NCBI GenBank assembly: GCA_029855935.1
Contig: JAGSHN010000023.1
Span: 71,516 to 135,515 of the forward strand
Length of the DNA: 64,000 nucleotides
Origin: Candidatus Thorarchaeota archaeon
GTDB lineage: Archaea; Asgardarchaeota; Thorarchaeia; Thorarchaeales; Thorarchaeaceae
Direction: 5' to 3'
The notes below the pieces were generated by a model. That model did no database searches, was not told the DNA's origin, and saw only the letters and a list, made by a program, of their open reading frames with translations. A program made the translations under genes and the position numbers. Shown here piece after piece: positions 35,141 to 64,000 of this stretch (its first letter is position 1; each line of letters opens with the position of its first letter).

Positions 35141-36257
35141 GTTTGAATCGGACTACAACTAGGGTTGAAACCTCACTCTCCTCTCGGGTCCACGTCTGCC
35201 TCTCTGAGTTTGAATCGGACTACAACTAGGGTTGAAACCAGTCTCTCGGTCGGGCCGCCAACGCTGAAATATATGTTTGAATCGGACTACAACTAGGGTT
35301 GAAACCTGCTTGAGATAGCGGGGGGCCTCATCGATTTCTGCTGTTTGAATCGGACTACAACTAGGGTTGAAACATTGCATATTATATCTGCGTGAAATTG
35401 GCCGAGAATGTTTGAATCGGACTACAACTAGGGTTGAAACCAGAAAAGGAGAGTCATAGATGGGGTGGCCGCACTCGTGTTTGAATCGGACTACAACTAG
35501 GGTTGAAACACGATGCGCGTGTGGCGGTCGAACTGTGCCAGAATCCGTTTGAATCGGACTACAACTAGGGTTGAAACGAAGAAATCAGATGCACCTGTGA
35601 CCTCACCGCGTTTGTTTGAATCGGACTACAACTAGGGTTGAAACCAAAGACGCGGAATGCGTCAAGTGTCTTACCGCCATTGTTTGAATCGGACTACAAC
35701 TAGGGTTGAAACCTTGAGGCGGACGTCCTCTGGGTTCCCCCAGTAGGGGAGTTTGAATCGGACTACAACTAGGGTTGAAACACAGAATCATTGTGTTGGT
35801 GTTGTATATCCACGAGCAGGGTTTGAATCGGACTACAACTAGGGTTGAAACTCTGGAGGATGGCGTGTTCCATGTGTTCTTGGGCTGGTTTGAATCGGAC
35901 TACAACTAGGGTTGAAACCCAAGAGAGGCCTGAAAGACCTCGCCATCGAGGACCGTTTGAATCGGACTACAACTAGGGTTGAAACGTCGCTCGGCTCCTC
36001 CTCCCTCAAGAACCTCGTCACGGTTTGAATCGGACTACAACTAGGGTTGAAACTGTTCACGTGGCCAGACAGTTGCGCGGTCTGTTCGGTCGTTTGAATC
36101 GGACTACAACTAGGGTTCAAACCTGCTTCGGGATTGGGAAGGGGGTGTGGAGCAGGCGAGGCCAGGATCGGACCACAGTAGGACTTAGCCCAGAGCTAGC
36201 TTTGCCTGCATCTCCGGACGGTCAGGGTCTGAGTGGGACTAGCAATTGAGATGGAAC
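35141..36257 (+). CRISPR. CRISPR array 1: repeat GTTTGAATCGGACTACAACTAGGGTTGAAAC (31 nt); 15 repeats (35141-36122) plus 2 degenerate trailer repeats
   Basis: Spacers 36-39 nt; repeat 15 ends TTCAAAC; degenerate copies lie in phase at 36161-36190 and 36227-36257. Confidence 0.97.
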
Positions 36258-53148: not shown

Positions 53149-54200
53149 GTTTGAATCGGACTAGAAGTAGGGTTGAAACCGTAGTCCAGCGACAGGTCCC
53201 AGTCCAGCCCGTTGCAGGTTTGAATCGGACTAGAAGTAGGGTTGAAACGCGGACTTCGAGAAGATCGCTGCGGAGTGCTATCTGGCGTTTGAATCGGACT
53301 AGAAGTAGGGTTGAAACGCGCTCCAGTTCGTGTCTAGCACGCTGATTATAGCATGTTTGAATCGGACTAGAAGTAGGGTTGAAACCTCTTTATTCAATGG
53401 AATCTTATCTATTAGAAAATAGTTTGAATCGGACTAGAAGTAGGGTTGAAACGACGCAACATACGCGGAGAAAGTGCTGAAGATCATGCGTTTGAATCGG
53501 ACTAGAAGTAGGGTTGAAACCTGATGGATGCCCGCGACAGATAGTTCCGTTCCTTGAGTTTGAATCGGACTAGAAGTAGGGTTGAAACACTCTGGCCCTG
53601 ACATTCGCATACTCCTCGTATGCACTGTTTGAATCGGACTAGAAGTAGGGTTGAAACTCAACCCTGTCACTGCTGTCACACTGTCTACCCCCTGTTTGAA
53701 TCGGACTAGAAGTAGGGTTGAAACCTTGATGTTGCGCTCGATGTCTGGAAGGGCCGTGCTGGTTTGAATCGGACTAGAAGTAGGGTTGAAACGCATGACG
53801 AGAAGCGGGCTCACCCGTTCACCGCTCTTGTTTGAATCGGACTAGAAGTAGGGTTGAAACACTCCTCCTCCTTCATCAGAGCCTTCATCATCTCGTGTTT
53901 GAATCGGACTAGAAGTAGGGTTGAAACATGATACGGGTGGCTTATAAGTCAAATCTCCGTAAAAGTTTGAATCGGACTAGAAGTAGGGTTGAAACCGTTC
54001 TGCGAGGATGTTGCCCGAAGGGCGGTCGAGAGGTTTGAATCGGACTAGAAGTAGGGTTGAAACGGCAGAAGGCCAGAGGTGACATTCTCGATGCGCTGCG
54101 GAGTTTGAATCGGACTAGAAGTAGGGTTGAAACAGCTCATCCAAAATATCATCTGCTAAGACAAATATTGTTTGAATGGGACTAGAAGTAGCGCCGGTAG
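53149..54200 (+). CRISPR. CRISPR array 2: repeat GTTTGAATCGGACTAGAAGTAGGGTTGAAAC; 15 intact repeats plus 1 degenerate, 15 spacers
   Basis: Spacers 36-39 nt; terminal repeat at 54170 reads GTTTGAATGGGACTAGAAGTAGCGCC... Confidence 0.97.
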
Positions 54201-54398: not shown

Positions 54399-54662
54399 TC
54401 ACACTATGAAGTCGCGGACGGTCGCGTCAATCCCCATCACGTCGCGTCTGATGACGGACTCTGATTTCGCGATGTAGAAGATTATGGAGTCGTAATCGTC
54501 CTTGATGACGCCCTTGAGCTCGACCTTGAGCGCCTTGAGTGCAGCCTCGGATATCTCGCCCTCGAAGACCGAGTTCTGTACTCTGAAGAGGTGGCGCCTG
54601 AGGATGGCGCGGACCTTGTCTATCCGTTCGACCTCGATGTCATAGACGACGATGGCGTACGT
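54399..54662 (-). CDS. cas2: Cas2 (expected start codon is ACG; alternative ATG at 54716 inside cas1)
   Basis: YAIVVYDI..VQNSVFEGE..DSIIFY. Confidence 0.92.
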   Translation of the reverse strand, partial: TYAIVVYDIEVERIDKVRAILRRHLFRVQNSVFEGEISEAALKALKVELKGVIKDDYDSIIFYIAKSESVIRRDVMGIDATVRDFIV

Positions 54663-54663
54663 G

Positions 54664-55656
54664 TCACCACCCCCTCCTGGCCAGATAGGGGGAGTACTCG
54701 CTGCCCTCGCAGACATGCTTGAGGAGCTTGTACGCGTCCAGTCTGAGCAGGTACTCTCTGGAGACCTTTCTCTTCAGTCTTGGATGTCTCGCTGTCTCGC
54801 GTAGCCGGTCCTCGAACTTGCGGATGAAGGTCCTCCGGCCAGTGTCCGCGAGCAGGCAGGAGTTGAGTTCCTGGTTGAAGTCCTCCGCAGTGATCAGCTT
54901 CAGGTTCAGGACATAGAAGATGACAGAGTCGACGAGGACGGGTTTGAAGACCTCAGCGAGGTCGAGGGCGAGCGAGTACCGTCGCTCCAGCGGCTCGTGC
55001 AGATAGCTTATCGACGGGTCCAGTTGCGTGTGGTACAGCTGCGTCAGGACTGCTGAGTAGAGGAGCGAGTTACCGAAGCTGATGAGGGCATTCACAGGAT
55101 TGTTTGGTGGGCGCCGCACGCGTGGCCCCATCTCAAAGTCCTTGATGATGTGGTCGAATGTCTCATAGTAGATACCCCAGGCGCGGCCCTCGACGCTCAT
55201 CAGCTCCGGGACGGATCTGCAGTCATCTATCTCCTCAGCACACTCCTCCAGGCTGTCCACAGCGGGGCTGAGCGGCTCGCCTTTCGTCTTGTGTTGACGG
55301 CACGTGTGGACCATGTTCTGGATAGACGCGTGCACGATCTCTCCAGCAATGAGAAGCCGTCTGTCAGCATCGAGATATGCCTCTGCCTGATTGACAACGG
55401 CATATCCAGAGATCAGTCTCCTGCGCGGATAGAACGACCCCTCGAAGTTCCCGTAGTGGCCGAAGAAGTGAATGGGAATGCCGAGCGACGAGAGAAATGA
55501 GATGACCCCCGATGTGAGCGTGATGTGACCGACAGCATATATCGCCTTCACCTGCTCAACAGGGATGATTGTACGACCCTCACGATTGACAAAGTGCAGT
55601 GTCGACTCTTTCCTCAGGAGCCTACCGTTGGCGGTCAGATACAGGTTTCTCTTCAT
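54664..55656 (-). CDS. cas1: Type I-B Cas1
   Basis: LMSVEG, RRPPNNPVNALISFGN, SYLHEP..RYSLALDLAEVFKP. Confidence 0.95.
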   Translation of the reverse strand: MKRNLYLTANGRLLRKESTLHFVNREGRTIIPVEQVKAIYAVGHITLTSGVISFLSSLGIPIHFFGHYGNFEGSFYPRRRLISGYAVVNQAEAYLDADRRLLIAGEIVHASIQNMVHTCRQHKTKGEPLSPAVDSLEECAEEIDDCRSVPELMSVEGRAWGIYYETFDHIIKDFEMGPRVRRPPNNPVNALISFGNSLLYSAVLTQLYHTQLDPSISYLHEPLERRYSLALDLAEVFKPVLVDSVIFYVLNLKLITAEDFNQELNSCLLADTGRRTFIRKFEDRLRETARHPRLKRKVSREYLLRLDAYKLLKHVCEGSEYSPYLARRGW

Positions 55657-55660
55657 CTCA

Positions 55661-56230
55661 TCACACCCTGCAATAGTCCCGATATGCACAGTGACGACAG
55701 GGAGCGTTCTCCGGGACTGGTGGTGGGGTGCGGGCCTGCATCATCTCCCTTATCCTCCCAACCGCCTCACGTACCTCTCTGCGCCCGTCGTCATCTAGGG
55801 CCACCTCCTGTGTGCGCCGGTTCGAGTAGATGTGGATGACTCCCGAACAGCGCACGCCGAGGGCCTCGAGATAAGACATATAGAATAGGAGCTGGAGGCG
55901 GGCAGCCCTTAGATACGCACCGGACTTCTTCACCTCGTGAACCAGAACGAGCTCTCCCATTGCCGTATGGTCGAGTCGGATCTGACCGAAGATGAGTTGT
56001 TCCTTCTCGGCCCGCGAGAAGGATGACTGATGTATCAGGTTCCCGATACGTACCAGCTCGGAGTCCTGCTCCCGACCGAGCCTGTGAAGGAAGAGCCACA
56101 GCTTTCGCTCGCAGACGACCAAGTAGTTTATCATCGTGCCGTTGATGCCTGACCACCCGCGCACAACAGGGTTTCCCGCCATCGTAAGTTCGTCAAAGAA
56201 TGAACTCATCGGACGGTCTGTACTCATCAC
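55661..56230 (-). CDS. cas4: Cas4
   Basis: VCERKLWL, RLD..HEVKKS, QLLFY, CRHCAYRDYC. Confidence 0.93.
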   Translation of the reverse strand: MMSTDRPMSSFFDELTMAGNPVVRGWSGINGTMINYLVVCERKLWLFLHRLGREQDSELVRIGNLIHQSSFSRAEKEQLIFGQIRLDHTAMGELVLVHEVKKSGAYLRAARLQLLFYMSYLEALGVRCSGVIHIYSNRRTQEVALDDDGRREVREAVGRIREMMQARTPPPVPENAPCRHCAYRDYCRV

Positions 56231-58445
56231 GCATCAACTCCTTCACAAGGAGACCCCTCCTCGGGTCATATGGCACGTCGCACACCGGCATGCCCCTGAG
56301 CGTATAACGCACGAGATTCTCGGACACAATTGTGCCAAACACGTACCTCCTGACGCTCAGGATGTATTGCGGGAGGTCGAACCATCTCTGTCCGCTGACC
56401 TCCTGTGCCTCCTCCTCGTAGTAGGACGGGATTATCTCGACAGAGTCGAATAGACGCATATACTCGTCACGGCGGGGCTTTGCCATTGGCACAACGGTCT
56501 CCCAGGTACTCCTGAGGGCGTCGTATGCGCCCTCAAAGCGGCTCTGCTCCTCCTCTGTATAGCCCTCGCGATAGACGGCCTCCACTATGGCCCGTGAACC
56601 AGCCTCTGAGAGGAGCAGGCCATCACCGGCATCACGTTCTCTCAGTTCTCTCAGAGTTGCACTGACCCTCTCTGTTGCTGTGTACACCCTGTCGTCGTAG
56701 GGACCTCCCTCAGAGAAGACGAACACGTCAGCAGCAGGTCTGATCCGGCCCTGACGGTTCACTCTCCCGAACCTCTGAAGCAGGGCATCGACTGGCGCTG
56801 GCTCAGTGAATAGCACGTCAAAGTCAAGATCGAGAGACACCTCGACGGCCTGGGTTGCAACGAGGACCCCTGAGCTTTCAATCTCGCCCTCTCGCTCTAT
56901 CCTGTCCCTGAGGGCAAACCTGCCATGTAGGAGCGTCACGTCGGCCGAGTGAAGTCTCTCGACGAGATCATCGTAGACCTGGAGCGCCCGGTTGACCGTG
57001 TTGCACACGATGAGGACTCGATTCTCATGAACACGTTCAGTGATGTCGTCGACGTGCTGCATCACATCGCCGTTCATCAGACGGACCCTGTGTCTGACCC
57101 TCTCATCGAGAGAAGAGTCAATGAGTACCTTGTCGGCCGGAATCCGCAGATGACGTGCGAACTCACGTCGGAGGAATGATGGAAACGTCGCAGACATCAG
57201 CAGTATGTCAGACCCTTGTTCCCGGGCCACCTCAAGGAGAAACAGGATCAGTGCTATCGTGTGCGGATCATATGTGTGGACCTCGTCTACCACAATGAGA
57301 GCGCCGGTGACCTCAGCAAGGCCCATCTCAAACCCACGCACTCCGAAGAGCGTCTTGAGGGGTTGGTACGGTGTCGTCACCTTGACGGCAGAGTAGATCT
57401 TCCGGGCGACAGATGCCAAGTAGGCCGGGTCGACACCAGCCCGCTGGTAGTCCTCCTCAGCATAGTAAGAATAGAGGAACTGTGCCGAACGATGGTGGAG
57501 CATGGAGACAACGTCGAACCGGTTCGTGTCGCCCTGAGAGAGCATATCACGGAGCCGCTCATACATCTTGTTGATGCTCGCCGTGGTGGGCAGCAGGTAC
57601 AGGACTCTTCGCTTTGCAGCACCGTTGTTCGCAGACCAGAGAAGCGCAGCCTCGGTCTTGCCTACACCCGTTGGCGCGACTATGATGCCCGGGCCGGTGA
57701 GTCCTGCTGCCAGACGCTGTATCGGCCGTGGGTTGAACCCACTGAAGACTTCGGTCCAGCTGACGCGGGGTAGTGACGAAGCGTGTGCTGAGGCAAGGTG
57801 GTCGCACGTGAGCATCAGGCCCCGTAGGCCCATGAGCCGTGTCCGTTCTGGCCCTGTGATCTGCGGTCGGCGCTGGCGGTAGTCGCCGACGTATCTCACA
57901 AACGGGTCGGGCTCGCTCATCTCTGCCAGAGCGGACTCCCAGTCTCTCGGTATGGTCCTCAGCGCGTCCGCAGCAGTCCGACTGACGCGGCTGCACTTGT
58001 CGGCGAGCTCTGGGATAAGACCCACGAGTTCGTTCCACGTGGAATGAAGTTCTCCAAGGTACCTGAGATATCTCTCGTAGCCTCCCGCTCCACGGGGCAA
58101 CGTGGAGTAGCCGTTCCACAGTGTGTCAAGATCCTTGTGATGGGAGAGGACGGTGAGGGCGACCTCGCGGCCGAAGTCCTCTGACGGCCACTTCAGCAGG
58201 GAGAGTATAGCGGCGGAGAGGATCTCATGACGGTAGCCCCAGTGTCCGCCGCCCTTCAGAGTCTTCTGAAAGCCCGCAGCAGCCTTTCCTAGGTCGTGTG
58301 TGACGACCGCCGAGGTGAGTACGTCGTATAGGCCCTGGCCGAAGATTCGCTCGTGACATCCGATATCCACGAGATTCTCGGCAATGCCCAGTGCTCTCAC
58401 TGTGTGGTCCCTGAGGGTCTCGTCAGGCTTTGCAAGGAGCACCAT
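56193..58445 (-). CDS. cas3: Cas3 (HD nuclease plus SF2 helicase)
   Basis: HDLGK, HH, DHLAS; APTGVGKT, DEVH, MSAT, QRFGRVNR. Confidence 0.95.
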   Translation of the reverse strand: MVLLAKPDETLRDHTVRALGIAENLVDIGCHERIFGQGLYDVLTSAVVTHDLGKAAAGFQKTLKGGGHWGYRHEILSAAILSLLKWPSEDFGREVALTVLSHHKDLDTLWNGYSTLPRGAGGYERYLRYLGELHSTWNELVGLIPELADKCSRVSRTAADALRTIPRDWESALAEMSEPDPFVRYVGDYRQRRPQITGPERTRLMGLRGLMLTCDHLASAHASSLPRVSWTEVFSGFNPRPIQRLAAGLTGPGIIVAPTGVGKTEAALLWSANNGAAKRRVLYLLPTTASINKMYERLRDMLSQGDTNRFDVVSMLHHRSAQFLYSYYAEEDYQRAGVDPAYLASVARKIYSAVKVTTPYQPLKTLFGVRGFEMGLAEVTGALIVVDEVHTYDPHTIALILFLLEVAREQGSDILLMSATFPSFLRREFARHLRIPADKVLIDSSLDERVRHRVRLMNGDVMQHVDDITERVHENRVLIVCNTVNRALQVYDDLVERLHSADVTLLHGRFALRDRIEREGEIESSGVLVATQAVEVSLDLDFDVLFTEPAPVDALLQRFGRVNRQGRIRPAADVFVFSEGGPYDDRVYTATERVSATLRELRERDAGDGLLLSEAGSRAIVEAVYREGYTEEEQSRFEGAYDALRSTWETVVPMAKPRRDEYMRLFDSVEIIPSYYEEEAQEVSGQRWFDLPQYILSVRRYVFGTIVSENLVRYTLRGMPVCDVPYDPRRGLLVKELMRDEYRPSDEFIL

Positions 58446-58449
58446 CGGT

Positions 58450-59100
58450 CTATGTCAGCCCCATTGTCTGTGGGTCAAACATCTGCATCACAATGCCCCT
58501 ATCGGGGTCTACTACTCCCTCTCCTCGTGCCCGATAAGTGTCCGTGATCAGATAGAACGGCCTAGTACCTACTGCCCTCCGCGGGATCTCCTCCGTGAAG
58601 TAGAGTGGGAGAGCGTACATAAACGCCCAGCGGTATCCTGTCGGAGGACTCACGTACAGTCCTCGCCCGAAGAGGTTCTCCTCCTTGTCAGTCACCTGCT
58701 CAAGGTCCACCCTCTCCACCGAGTCCACAGTCGCAAGGTCAGTAGAGCGGCCCAACAGCAGCGGGAAGTGCGGCCTCCTCAGATGCTGCTCCATCTCCGT
58801 GTCCACGTAGAGTGTCAGGTGACAGTCGAACAGCATCTCCCTCCTGATGACGTTCCACTTTCCACCCTTTCCCGGCTCCACCTCCAGTATCCTCTCAAGG
58901 TCGGTCGCGCGTCCGCGAGAGGTGAAGGTGTAGGCCAGAAAGGTGTCGTGTGGAGTGATGATGCGGCCGGCCGTTGCTGAGAGCAGGCCGTACACGGTCG
59001 ACGGCGGCGGGAGAGGAAGGGTGGGCTGTCTGCCGATCATAAAACCGGCATATCTGAACGAGGCGGTCCACGAGCTTATCTCTGCACGTACAGCCTCCAC
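58450..59100 (-). CDS. cas5: Cas5 (Cas5t, type I-B)
   Basis: WTASFRY..PPPSTVYGLL, LLLGRSTDLA; GTG start at 59100 after a GGGTGG SD. Confidence 0.9.
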   Translation of the reverse strand: MEAVRAEISSWTASFRYAGFMIGRQPTLPLPPPSTVYGLLSATAGRIITPHDTFLAYTFTSRGRATDLERILEVEPGKGGKWNVIRREMLFDCHLTLYVDTEMEQHLRRPHFPLLLGRSTDLATVDSVERVDLEQVTDKEENLFGRGLYVSPPTGYRWAFMYALPLYFTEEIPRRAVGTRPFYLITDTYRARGEGVVDPDRGIVMQMFDPQTMGLT

Positions 59101-59122
59101 CGTGACCACCCTCTTCACAGCC

Positions 59123-60127
59123 CTAGTCGATGAGGTCAGGTATGCGTTCCGACAGTGCCTTGACAACGCTGACAACCGAGCCCAAGACTACCTTCTCGCC
59201 AAACTCGGCCTGGAGCTTCTCCAGTGGCTCGGCCTGACTGTCCAGAAAGCCCGCCTCTCGGCCTATGAACAGCGGAGAGAGGACCTCATCGCCGTAGTCC
59301 TGCAGCACCTGACGCAGAGAGGCGATGTTTATCTCGGGAGCACCGTCTCTGGTAGTGACCGCGTGTGAGAGCAGATGGCTCCCCGTCCTGAATGCCCCAA
59401 GGATGACAAGACTGGGCGCGACCCGAGTCAGGTGTCGGGCCTGCATTGCGCCGCCCTCCAGGAACGGCAGGACCTCTATGACGTCCCGCACACGTTTCAC
59501 ACGAATCTCCTTGACCAGCTCGAAGTAGCCGTCGCTGCGCTTTGTGCAGACCTTGGCGTACTCAGACGGGACCTCGTAGTCGCTGGGCAGGTTCTGACTC
59601 CCCGCCGTCTGGACTGCCTTGAACACTCCCGCTGACTCAAGGTCTATCGAGAAGATGCCCTTCAGGACCGTGGAGTAGAACTCGTGCTCGTATGGCACAG
59701 GGTCGCCCTCCAGGCGAGAGAAAGTCCCGAAGTCTGCGGTAGGACGATGGGGCACTACCGAAACGAGCACCGACGTCTTGAGCACCGATTGCCTCGTCAG
59801 CGCGGAGCCCGTCTTGCCAGTCTTCTTCGGAGCCCGCATGTAACCAAAGATGTCATCATCCGGGTACTTGATGGGGTCTGCTGCGGTGTACGCTATCTTC
59901 TTCTCCCGATTGATGGGGGAGAGCTCCCATCCCTTCCTTCGTGCCAGGGTGTCCCGCCACCAGTATCTCCAGGCCTGTCCCGACACGTAGGGACGGGGGC
60001 CGTCATTGGTCCAGAACACCTTCGTCCTCACGATGTTGTCTGTCCGTTCTGACACGTCGGTGCCCGCATTGTTGAGCGCAGACGCCCACGTGTCGACAAG
60101 GACAAGACCCTGTATTGTCTTTGGCAT
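59123..60127 (-). CDS. cas7: Cas7 (Cst2/DevR-type, type I-B)
   Basis: SALNNAG, YVSGQAWRYWWR, DDIFGYMRA. Confidence 0.92.
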   Translation of the reverse strand: MPKTIQGLVLVDTWASALNNAGTDVSERTDNIVRTKVFWTNDGPRPYVSGQAWRYWWRDTLARRKGWELSPINREKKIAYTAADPIKYPDDDIFGYMRAPKKTGKTGSALTRQSVLKTSVLVSVVPHRPTADFGTFSRLEGDPVPYEHEFYSTVLKGIFSIDLESAGVFKAVQTAGSQNLPSDYEVPSEYAKVCTKRSDGYFELVKEIRVKRVRDVIEVLPFLEGGAMQARHLTRVAPSLVILGAFRTGSHLLSHAVTTRDGAPEINIASLRQVLQDYGDEVLSPLFIGREAGFLDSQAEPLEKLQAEFGEKVVLGSVVSVVKALSERIPDLID

Positions 60128-60129
60128 CT

Positions 60130-60492
60130 CTATTCCACCTCCATTGTTTCAACCAGTTCCTCTATATCGCCCTCGACGTCCTCCTCTTTCTTGAGGAAAT
60201 CCGAGAGCCAACTCGCCCCAGCCTCATAGATTCTGAAGAGGAGAAGATCCCTCACCTCGCTCCACTGTCTCTCATCGGGGAGTATGGCGTCCACAAGCTC
60301 GTCAAAGGTCAGGAGCGGTTGCCCCTTCTTCGCAACAGTGAGCTTGTGCATCCTGAGCAGGACCGTACGGAACTGTCCCAGATACTTTGCACGGTCCAGT
60401 ATCTGAATCAGCTTCAGGGAGTTTTCAGCCTTGCATATCTCTAGGATTCTGTCTGCCACATCCTTGATGGTCTGAATGCGTTCCTCGTCCAT
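60130..60492 (-). CDS. cas11: Putative internally translated Cas11 small subunit
   Basis: GAGGAGGTTGAGAAAT-ATG in frame within cas8, giving a 120-aa helical product MDEERIQ... Confidence 0.6.
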   Translation of the reverse strand: MDEERIQTIKDVADRILEICKAENSLKLIQILDRAKYLGQFRTVLLRMHKLTVAKKGQPLLTFDELVDAILPDERQWSEVRDLLLFRIYEAGASWLSDFLKKEEDVEGDIEELVETMEVE

Positions 60493-61584
60493 ATTTCTCA
60501 ACCTCCTCAGATAGAGTGATACCAGTTCCCAACTACCTATCACGGTCATTCTTTGTCGATCCTCGAAGAAGTACCGAAGAATCGACCTATCTTCTACAAT
60601 CCGGCGATACACCTGATTCTCACGGATGTACGGGGCCTCATTGGGGTCCTCCTCCTTCCTCACGACGAATCCCTTTGCGACAACGCGATCCCACTGACTG
60701 GCCAGTCCACTGCGCTGAACGGCTATGAGATAGTCTACCACAGCCGACGGGATATCGTAGAACTCAAGAATGGGGTTTCGACCATCAGAGGAGAACGTGT
60801 AGAACCTCAATGGCACTATGAGCCTATCGAGGGGCATCACTTGTACATCGGGGTCCTGAACAATCTCCGTGAGAGCCGAAAATATCGCATTCAGTGTCGC
60901 GCCAGCCTTGTACCCCATATCAACAATGCCAGGTTCCTTTGCAGCGGCGATCCTCAGGGCCTCTGTGGTATTTCGTTTCGCGTATGCTAGGAGTATCTCC
61001 CAGCTCACTGTGTGCATTAGCAGCGCCCTGCGGTGCATCGGGCGCGACCTGCGGTATCCCAACTGCATCCTGCCGATCTTCTCTATCGCCAGTGGCATAA
61101 ACTGCACTGCCAAGAGACAGTTCGCGCAGAATGGCTCTCCCGTGCTCCACGCCGCAAAGAAATTGGCCATCGGCTGTGAGCCGAGAAGGGGAACCATCGT
61201 CTTGTCAACGCGCTGCCCATCTCTCCGGCCACATGCAACACAACTACCACTACTATGCGGCGGGCTGAGCGAATCGAGCAGCCCGTCAAGGAGCTTCCTG
61301 TACTCTGCCTTGCGATTCCTGATTGAGGGATTGCCCAGTTTCGAGTTCGGAAATATCATCCCTTGAAAGACCCTTGTCCAGTTCTCGTGGCAATATACGT
61401 CCACGAGCCATGGAATCTTCTTCTCAATGGCCGCTCGTGTCACCTTCCCCGGATGGTCAACATTCAGCAGACTGCACATTGCTGCGAGGCCCGAGTCGAC
61501 AAAGGGGTTTCCAGTCACCGAGAAGAGCGGGCCTGCGCCTGCCTTACCCCCAGCCTCCGACTTCTTCTCACCCCGCATCGTCAT
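60130..61584 (-). CDS. cas8b: Cas8b (Cst1/CXXC-CXXC type) large subunit
   Basis: TGNPFVDSG, FPNS, CVACG, PLLGS..NFF, FCANC, W.EVRDLLL. Confidence 0.88.
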   Translation of the reverse strand: MTMRGEKKSEAGGKAGAGPLFSVTGNPFVDSGLAAMCSLLNVDHPGKVTRAAIEKKIPWLVDVYCHENWTRVFQGMIFPNSKLGNPSIRNRKAEYRKLLDGLLDSLSPPHSSGSCVACGRRDGQRVDKTMVPLLGSQPMANFFAAWSTGEPFCANCLLAVQFMPLAIEKIGRMQLGYRRSRPMHRRALLMHTVSWEILLAYAKRNTTEALRIAAAKEPGIVDMGYKAGATLNAIFSALTEIVQDPDVQVMPLDRLIVPLRFYTFSSDGRNPILEFYDIPSAVVDYLIAVQRSGLASQWDRVVAKGFVVRKEEDPNEAPYIRENQVYRRIVEDRSILRYFFEDRQRMTVIGSWELVSLYLRRLRNMDEERIQTIKDVADRILEICKAENSLKLIQILDRAKYLGQFRTVLLRMHKLTVAKKGQPLLTFDELVDAILPDERQWSEVRDLLLFRIYEAGASWLSDFLKKEEDVEGDIEELVETMEVE

Positions 61585-61593
61585 AGCCGTGAC

Positions 61594-62349
61594 CTACCTC
61601 GTCCTCCCTCTCCTGCAGGCAATCATCCCGCAGCCCATGGCATTCTTCTCGCCGAGGCCGCAGTCGTAGGCGAACCCGAGTACGTCAGGCGAGCCCTCAA
61701 GCGTGATGTCCATCAGGTGGGCCTTGTGGAACGTGCCCTTGATCTCAATCCGTACGTTCTTGCTCCTCGGGATGTCCACCACCGAGGGTGTCCTCTTCGG
61801 GGGGTGCCCGTAGAACGCAGTGTACTTCTTCACGAGATTGAGCATCAGGCGCTCGGCGTACTCGGGGTCATCAGGCCCCATATCGATGACCCTGGGACCA
61901 GCCGGCGTCTCCTCGTGCCGCCGCAGGACAATTGGCGACAGCGTGGTGAATGTGACCTCTTCGTCCGTAAAGGTAATCCTCCCCGGTGACGACAGACCAA
62001 GCACCGAGAACCGGACACCGCCGAACTCCACGGACTCCGACATCGTGATCCCGTGGGCAAGGATGCGTGCCAGGTGGGCGTCGGGACTGCTGAACCAGAG
62101 GTACGCATCGTTGCTCAAAATCACGAGGCCCTCCGGTGTGGCCCGCCTTCGGGGTGCCTCAAGTCTTGAGAACGTGAAGAACTTGTACCCGCGCCTCGCG
62201 TGCAGCGCGTCGTACTCGGGGCCCCCGGACCTTAGCAGGTCGTAGAGCATCGCGGCTATCCCGTATTGGTACGAGTAGCTCAGCCTCGGCGGCCGCCCGT
62301 TCCTCCTCCACGGTGCAAGTGTCACTCGGAACCTCAACCGTCGCACCAC
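61594..62349 (-). CDS. cas6: Cas6 crRNA-processing endoribonuclease
   Basis: LHARRGYKFFTFS, TLSPI, CGLGEKNAMGCG Gly-rich loop. Confidence 0.93.
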   Translation of the reverse strand: MVRRLRFRVTLAPWRRNGRPPRLSYSYQYGIAAMLYDLLRSGGPEYDALHARRGYKFFTFSRLEAPRRRATPEGLVILSNDAYLWFSSPDAHLARILAHGITMSESVEFGGVRFSVLGLSSPGRITFTDEEVTFTTLSPIVLRRHEETPAGPRVIDMGPDDPEYAERLMLNLVKKYTAFYGHPPKRTPSVVDIPRSKNVRIEIKGTFHKAHLMDITLEGSPDVLGFAYDCGLGEKNAMGCGMIACRRGRTR

Positions 62350-62425
62350 TCAGCAGTGCCTTCCGATATTGGACACACCAATTCGGTGGGACATTTGCCC
62401 GAGTAGGAAAGGGTGGCGTTCTCAG

Positions 62426-62440
62426 GTATAAGGGTTCGTT
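62426..62440 (-). promoter_or_regulatory. BRE/TATA-like promoter of the type I-B operon
   Basis: AACGAACCCTTATAC on the minus strand, the same motif as upstream of alkD. Confidence 0.55.
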
Positions 62441-62592
62441 GTACGCCCTTCGAGGGATTCTTCCGCACTGAAACAACCCTGGCACAGGTTATCGCCGCGC
62501 ACGGGTAACCGACTCCGTCTGAGTAGGGCCGCTGGAGTCCACCCCGTTGCCGTGGGCCGATGACACAGGACACGGTTTGACAGGCTGGCACT

Positions 62593-62697
62593 CACAACTA
62601 CACGTCTCCGGAACTATGTGCACTGAGCAACCATCAACGCCTATTCTTGCGGAAAGGGGGAGGTGCGTGGGATCCGGACCGGCCTTGAGGCTGAGCC
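62593..62697 (+). CRISPR. Degenerate leader copy followed by a degenerate repeat (cryptic or relic mini-array)
   Basis: About 50/69 identity to the leader core by hand alignment; 62667-62697 matches the repeat at ~17/31 positions. Confidence 0.55.
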
Positions 62698-62889
62698 GAG
62701 GCCTGGAGCGCAGAATAACCTCTGGCAACACTGTGAGCGGGATGCCACCGGAACATTCCTGGGACCTTGCAGGTGGAGACAAAAAACCCCAGCACGGAGA
62801 AACGGTCCTTGCCAGTTGCACTGGGGTCACTCCCGAGAGCAGCTCCCCCTGTGACGCCCCCACGGCCGTCGAGATAGCACTCTCCTCGG

Positions 62890-63270
62890 TCAGCTACTTG
62901 ACAGACAACTCCCCCCCAGTGACTACGCTGCGCATCTGTATCCGCCGCCCAACAACACCTATCACGGACAACTCAACTATGCTGGACCGGTAATGTGCTC
63001 TGTATCGCGGCCACCCGTCCTACAGCACGGTGGTCAACGATACGTTTGTGGCCGATAGAGAGTGCAGCTATGGACTGGCGGATCCTACGCTTCGGACAAT
63101 CTCATCAACTCCAACCATTTCGGCCTGAGTGGCCTCTCAAAGAAAGACGGAACAGAGAACTACTGGAACACGATAGGTCACGGCATCTGCTGGTCTGACT
63201 GTAGTGGCATCGGCACACACCAAATCCCGAGGGACGCAGGTTCGGTTGACTGTCACTCCACGGGCTGGGC
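62890..63270 (+). pseudogene. Remnant of a NosD/right-handed beta-helix surface protein C-terminus
   Basis: DNLINSNHFG..DGTENYWNTIGHGICWSDCSGIGTHQIPRDAGSVDCH resembles DNG..N.W....GNYWSDY.G...Y.IPG.AGSVD; upstream frames are broken. Confidence 0.55.
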
Positions 63271-63442
63271 GGCACTATGTCTCATCTTGCCAACAATCGA
63301 TCATCCTGGGGGCATCAGGTGCGAGTTGGGAGCGACCGTGGACTGGCAAGCGTAAGGCCCACCAATATGATCGAGAAGCCGGGTTAGGGACTAGAACAAC
63401 TCAAGGCTAACGTCTGTGCGAGATCCGATGCCATTGGCCTAT

Positions 63443-63552
63443 CTATGTGTATCGCGTCACACCACCGTGCACAACTAGAGGTTTCCAGGACAGGGTGCAC
63501 ACAGCGACCACCATAACGCTTATTTTGGCAAAAATGGGTGAAAATACCTGCG
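63443..63552 (+). promoter_or_regulatory. CRISPR leader 3
   Basis: 110-nt homolog of leaders 1 and 2. Confidence 0.9.
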
Positions 63553-64000
63553 GTTTGAATCGGACTAGAAGTAGGGTTGAAACGCGCCCCACAGAACGGA
63601 CAGTACGACACGTTCGGAGTGTTTGAATCGGACTAGAAGTAGGGTTGAAACGTAGGTCGTCACCACGGGGGGGCCTATGACCTTTCTCAGTTTGAATCGG
63701 ACTAGAAGTAGGGTTGAAACCAGGACAAAGGTGCTACTACGCGAGGCGCTGGACCTGTTTGAATCGGACTAGAAGTAGGGTTGAAACCAGCTCGCGCTCA
63801 ATCACGAGCACGGGCTCTTGAGCACGTTTGAATCGGACTAGAAGTAGGGTTGAAACGACAGTAGGGCAGATGTTCGAGAGAGCAGTGTCTGCAGTTTGAA
63901 TCGGACTAGAAGTAGGGTTGAAACGAATCAAGGAGCCAAGCATAGAAGCAGAGAAGCAGAGTTTGAATCGGACTAGAAGTAGGGTTGAAACGTGATAGTC
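63553..64000 (+). CRISPR. CRISPR array 3 (same repeat as array 2), at least 7 repeats, runs off the window end
   Basis: Repeats at 63553, 63621, 63690, 63757, 63826, 63894 and 63961. Confidence 0.97.

Follow-up and report, generated by a model that had tools for sequence, protein, structure and literature searches.

What is the degenerate leader-like and repeat-like sequence that lies between the type I-B cas6 gene and a live CRISPR array in this archaeal DNA? The sequence-only reading took it for a possible regulatory RNA of the CreR/CreA kind and gave a dead array relic as an equally possible alternative. We examined it in a window of 64,000 nucleotides (the whole stretch of DNA analysed, contig C29:71516-135515), which belongs to a 2.97-Mb genome (G000) of 32 contigs. 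The alternative was supported by homology, by the loss of otherwise invariant positions, by the junction with a pseudogene and by live arrays at the same spot in relatives. The segment 62593-62702 is very probably the non-functional stump of an array that once began beside cas6, was broken by a rearrangement and has since drifted neutrally; it looks like an ordinary array relic and not like a regulatory CRISPR-like RNA.

The cas operon of the window is of type I-B, runs on the minus strand from 62349 to 54399 and has the order cas6-cas8b-cas7-cas5-cas3-cas4-cas1-cas2 according to Pfam (Table 1). Since the cas genes abut or overlap, there is room for a promoter only upstream of cas6. Besides the three arrays of the window, the genome has two further arrays, on contigs C24 and C18, and its four live leaders are ~95% identical over ~110 nt. 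Array 1 has two positions at which all of its repeats depart from those of the other arrays (CTACAACTAG vs CTAGAAGTAG), while its leader is ~94-95% identical; both repeat variants are present in live arrays of other genera. The array on C18 (C18:28759-30959, minus strand) has 33 copies of the array 3 repeat and ends its contig, and may continue array 3.

Table 1. Features of the window, with positions counted from its first nucleotide
Feature	Position	Strand	Basis or remark
Decayed leader (psi-leader), pointing away from cas6	62593-62666	+	Alignment and profile homology to live leaders
Decayed repeat (psi-repeat)	62667-62702	+	Two possible registers, 62667-62697 (17/31) and 62672-62702 (16/31)
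Internal pseudogene fragment, NosD/right-handed beta-helix surface protein	62703-63337	+	tblastn E=1.5e-25
Array 3 live leader	63442-63552	+	Shares ~95% identity with the genome's other live leaders (three)
Array 3, live	63553-64000, runs off contig end	+	31-nt repeat GTTTGAATCGGACTAGAAGTAGGGTTGAAAC
cas6 upstream region, presumed cas6 promoter	62350-62592		No seed-type target for the stump 'spacer'
cas6 (first gene of operon)	61594-62349	-	Pfam Cas_Cas6_C 1.2e-26, Cas6_I-A 6.8e-15
cas8b	60130-61584	-	Pfam
cas7	59123-60127	-	Pfam
cas5	58450-59175	-	Pfam
cas3	56193-58445	-	Pfam
cas4	55661-56230	-	Pfam
cas1	54664-55689	-	Pfam
cas2	54399-54716	-	Pfam
Array 2	53149-54133	+	31-nt repeat
Array 1	35141-36122	+	31-nt repeat

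The first part of the stump is homologous to the leaders of the live arrays. Both the orientation away from cas6 (plus-strand leader, minus-strand cas6) and the hand-counted match of ~50/69 with one 2-nt gap, as given in the sequence-only reading, were reproduced: in a local alignment 62593-62661 agreed with the live leaders at 49-50 of 69 columns (~72%), with one 2-nt gap. We also ran the comparison with shuffled sequence which that reading had proposed, and the alignment score of 157 was reached by none of 2000 dinucleotide shuffles (mean 55, sd 9, max 101; z ~11). Within the 64-kb window this was the top match outside the arrays, the runner-up scoring 104. A profile of the four live leaders only, from which the stump had been left out so that the comparison was not circular, matched 62593-62659 with a genome-wide E=6.6e-5. 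By this homology, and by the states that it shares with its own lineage at 33 of 49 variable columns, the stump belongs to the leader family of the genome's I-B arrays.

A repeat-like unit follows exactly where the leader alignment predicts the repeat. It can be read in two registers because of an internal CCGGACCGG, and the ~17/31 match to the repeat noted earlier was found again at 62667-62697; matches of at least 17/31 occur at 2.6e-4 of background positions per strand. Together with the decayed leader this unit sits 244-353 nt upstream of the cas6 start, in the intergenic part of the cas locus, with a distance of ~320 nt from repeat to cas6. At the spacing expected for a second repeat (~36-40 nt on), no match of 15/31 or better was found on the plus strand. 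A live array combines invariant leader motifs with at least two near-identical repeats separated by spacers, whereas the stump has 12 of 21 invariant leader columns and a single decayed repeat.

The stretch after the repeat had been described as spacer-like, but it proved to be the start of a pseudogene fragment. The fragment is colinear with residues 711-926 of a NosD-like paralog on contig C7 (a 1403-aa stop-to-stop frame with a 1399-aa ORF; Pfam NosD 1.4e-81, PKD/Ig-like domains), and the match spans two frames, shifting from one to the other near 63068-63077, and contains a stop at 62991-62993. Further intact NosD-like paralogs are present on contigs C30, C3 and C13. Being colinear with this paralog from 62703 on, the DNA holds neither a spacer nor a second repeat, and the leader-repeat unit ends abruptly ~0-18 nt past the first repeat. 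About 100 nt of unique sequence separate the NosD-like fragment from the live leader of array 3, and the live leader-array begins ~740 nt beyond the stump. A Pfam search of the small ORFs of 62334-63611 gave nothing significant, the sole listed match being Rsm22 at E=0.16, below the cutoff. We also considered that the pseudogene had arrived together with the array 3 leader from an array flanked by a NosD gene, but rejected this as the other leaders and cas6 loci examined had no NosD-like flank. On the minus strand of the fragment, at 62770-62826, a hairpin CCCCAG...CTGGGG followed by T6 looks like a terminator; it is the only terminator-like site there, and no upstream minus-strand gene is evident.

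To see which positions of the stump had been kept, we compared it in an alignment with 17 live units (leader plus first repeat) drawn from 9 genera of its family. The live units share a GGAGGTTT block, the motif CATAAnnCTTATYTYG, which is likely their BRE/TATA region, an A-rich block before the repeat, and a near-invariant 3' part of the repeat, GTAGGGTTGAAA. The stump keeps 12 of the 21 leader columns and 4 of the 13 repeat columns that are invariant among the 17 units, and at the variable leader columns it is identical to the leader of its own genome at 33 of 49. These proportions mark it as an own-lineage paralog with no extra retention at the positions needed for function. The 5' handle derives from an invariant block in the 3' part of the repeat, GTAGGGTTGAAAC, of which the stump keeps 6-7 of 13 positions by our own count. 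The overall pattern of retention would be predicted for an own-lineage copy in neutral decay; for a leader still at work, a substrate of Cas6 or a handle for Cascade, the opposite would be expected.

The decayed leader could still retain a promoter and nothing else. It would then fire weakly and give a non-guide read-through transcript over the pseudogene, possibly adding to the transcription of array 3. The TATA-like box, rightly called eroded in the sequence-only reading, is partly kept, reading CCTATTCTT in place of the CTTATTTTG of the live leaders (5 of 7 bases by our own count from the alignment), and CTTATCTTG, CTTATCTCG and similar variants of this element are tolerated in the live leaders of other genera. 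Against this, the CATAA block directly before it, invariant in the live units, carries an indel, and the A-rich -10 region ahead of the repeat has been lost. We regard residual promoter activity as unlikely.

Less probable still is a functional guide of the CreR/CreA kind, in which the degenerate leader would drive a Cas6-trimmed crRNA-like RNA and Cascade would repress cas6 or another promoter through a partial seed. The hallmarks of these RNAs are a first repeat whose 5' handle is conserved and seed pairing of at least nt 1-5 and 7-11 with a PAM-flanked promoter site, while a second repeat usually supplies the 3' handle (PMC8501985; 10.1101/2023.03.10.532045). The position of the stump is the expected one: it is intergenic, in the cas locus and near cas6, and regulatory mini-arrays are enriched upstream of cas6 in type I-B loci (PMC10120712). 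A repeat-like unit is present, and since the two repeats of a working CreA can agree at just 11-16/30 (PMC8501985), function cannot be dismissed on low overall identity alone. However, the handle is degenerate. The last 8 nt of the repeat-like unit, the would-be 5' handle, read GCTGAGCC or GCCGAGGC depending on the register, against GTTGAAAC in the live arrays, i.e. 5/8 or 4/8, in addition to the low retention at invariant repeat columns given above. Beyond the missing second repeat, no T-run terminator was found on the plus strand in 62703-62800. Rfam gave no match for the stump, and its predicted fold was no better than that of shuffles (z=0.49).

The search for a target of such a guide was likewise negative. 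Over 23 registers (62690-62712), the longest 5'-anchored seed run found in the region upstream of cas6 was 6; across the cas locus as a whole the longest runs were 6-9, and all of these fall inside coding sequence. Both lie within a null obtained from the 114 real spacers of the genome, which give runs of 5-11 by chance. In a genome-wide scan made without a PAM criterion, seed matches of 11-12 occurred in the number expected by chance and had no common flanking triplet; self-targets offered no source for a PAM, as no spacer matched the genome beyond chance (exact matches of 17 nt or less). The 10/12 match of ATAACCTCTGGC (62715-62726) to the minus strand at 62481-62492, to which the sequence-only reading had pointed, does exist, but it is not significant, with 16% of shuffled spacers giving as many matches or more. 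This 12-mer encodes I-T-S-G of a beta-helix repeat unit, and the 'spacer' in question is pseudogene sequence.

A regulatory element would also be expected to be conserved, and we looked for it in related genomes. At the DNA level the 1.1-kb interval from cas6 to the live leader (62350-63440) had no match in 40 relatives except for a short pseudogene piece. Upstream of seven related cas6 genes, no leader-like match was found in six. This negative result carries little power because the relatives are distant: the closest Cas6 within the family is ~50% identical or less, and a search for a closer cas6 in genome and metagenome contig collections gave none above 38% identity. At the seventh cas6 locus (G011), a live leader and array lie 449 nt from cas6 and point away from it, and in another genome of the same family (G080) a live leader with a three-repeat array lies ~226 nt from cas6 in the same orientation. 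The stump thus occupies the place of the family's cas6-adjacent array. Two three-repeat arrays behind intact leaders were noticed among the relatives, L060:1586-1751 (G080:C106) and L055:1607-1755 (G003:C5). That of G080 directly adjoins cas6 and its third repeat has already diverged; they may be arrays that are young or shrinking, or else regulatory mini-arrays. As for the regulatory RNA proposed by the sequence-only reading, it is not supported, given the degenerate handle, the single repeat, the lack of a seed match at the cas6 promoter, the pseudogene origin of the 'spacer' and the failure to find the element in relatives. The last of these is among the outcomes which that reading had itself named as refuting the RNA.

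In Haloferax, a type I-B crRNA-like RNA represses genes other than cas. By analogy, the eroded leader might give a non-canonical guide whose captured NosD 'spacer' would let Cascade dampen the paralogous surface-protein genes on other contigs. We regard this candidate as barely credible, since the genome-wide scan gave no seed-anchored match of the 'spacer' to the NosD-like paralogs and the handle is degenerate. A purely fortuitous likeness to the leader, without common descent, is effectively refuted, for although the identity is just ~72% over 69 nt, the shuffles, the ranking in the window and the genome-wide profile match all speak against it, as does the repeat-like unit that follows the leader in register.

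Array decay recurs in this genome, as a second relic on contig C24 indicates. At C24:1176-1440 on the minus strand (L032:1176-1440) a leader-like stretch matches the live-leader profile with E=4.8e-10 and is followed, at intervals of 37-38 nt, by three progressively more degenerate repeat-like units, the first with a handle of 6/8 (GTCGAAAT) and the second with 17/22 of the 3'-handle part. It is less decayed than the stump of the window (89/120 vs 72/120 positions identical to the live leader) and lies well away from the cas genes, amid housekeeping genes (MFS transporter, EMC3-like, DUF362). No seed target for it turned up in either the cas locus or the genome at large, and the four genomes of the same genus do not conserve it. 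Of 13 co-divergent sites, the stump and this relic share their state at 9 (p=0.009, tested against 1/3). We take this as no more than a weak hint of one variant-leader lineage, given that 7 of the 9 agreements are transitions and that the mutual identity of the two (65/120) is lower than that of each to the live leader.

Two weaker sites were also recorded. A solo repeat at C30:27075-27105 on the minus strand (L033:3076-3106) is identical to the live repeat in its first 24 nt, has a divergent 3' end and no leader, and has TPR/WD40 genes on one side and a 1244-aa NosD/beta-helix gene on the other; its appearance is that of a terminal repeat left stranded. At C17:67317-67373 on the minus strand there is a third, weak leader-like match (E=0.008 against the live-leader profile), which is not followed by any repeat-like sequence and could be an older relic or chance.

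The reading of the segment beside cas6 as a decayed array stump suggests the following order of events, which we infer from the arrangement of the locus. The original cas6-proximal array would have begun here, with its leader and first repeat. A rearrangement that brought in the fragment of a surface-protein gene may then have broken it right after the first repeat, and the stump, now redundant, would have drifted neutrally, while the live leader-array ~740 nt on would serve as its replacement. Most likely the stump yields no Cas6-processed, Cascade-loaded RNA and regulates nothing.

By itself the stump matters little, although it records one rearrangement in the history of the I-B locus of this archaeon. 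It may rather serve as a worked example of how a decayed array stump can be told from a CreR/CreA-type regulator, by means of three checks: whether positions invariant across the live arrays of related genera are retained, in comparison with lineage-specific ones; whether seed matches exceed a null made from the genome's real spacers; and whether the 'spacer' is in fact something else, here a gene fragment.

In comparison with known systems, the stump shares with CreA of CreTA (PMC8501985) its derivation from a CRISPR repeat and its position beside type I-B cas genes, but it is not accompanied by a divergent small toxin gene and shows no seed pairing to a neighbouring promoter. In Haloarcula CreTA sits at the cas6-cas8 junction, and here the same junction is without intergenic space. 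As with CreR and the type I-B regulatory mini-arrays (Liu et al., bioRxiv 10.1101/2023.03.10.532045; Shmakov et al., PMC10120712), the intergenic DNA upstream of cas6 contains a repeat-like unit. Unlike them, the stump lacks a conserved 5' handle, a second repeat and a PAM-flanked seed target close to the cas promoter, is not conserved, and retains leader-like sequence, which is unusual for such elements. Partially degraded stand-alone repeats do occur in cas loci (PMC10120712). Like other relic arrays, the stump has an eroded yet recognisable leader and repeat without intact spacer-repeat units, lies in a CRISPR-cas locus and is lineage-specific. What sets it apart is, first, that the NosD-like fragment, a foreign piece that can be dated, comes next and so locates the break to within ~0-18 nt past the first repeat and, second, that a replacement live leader-array lies a short way downstream.
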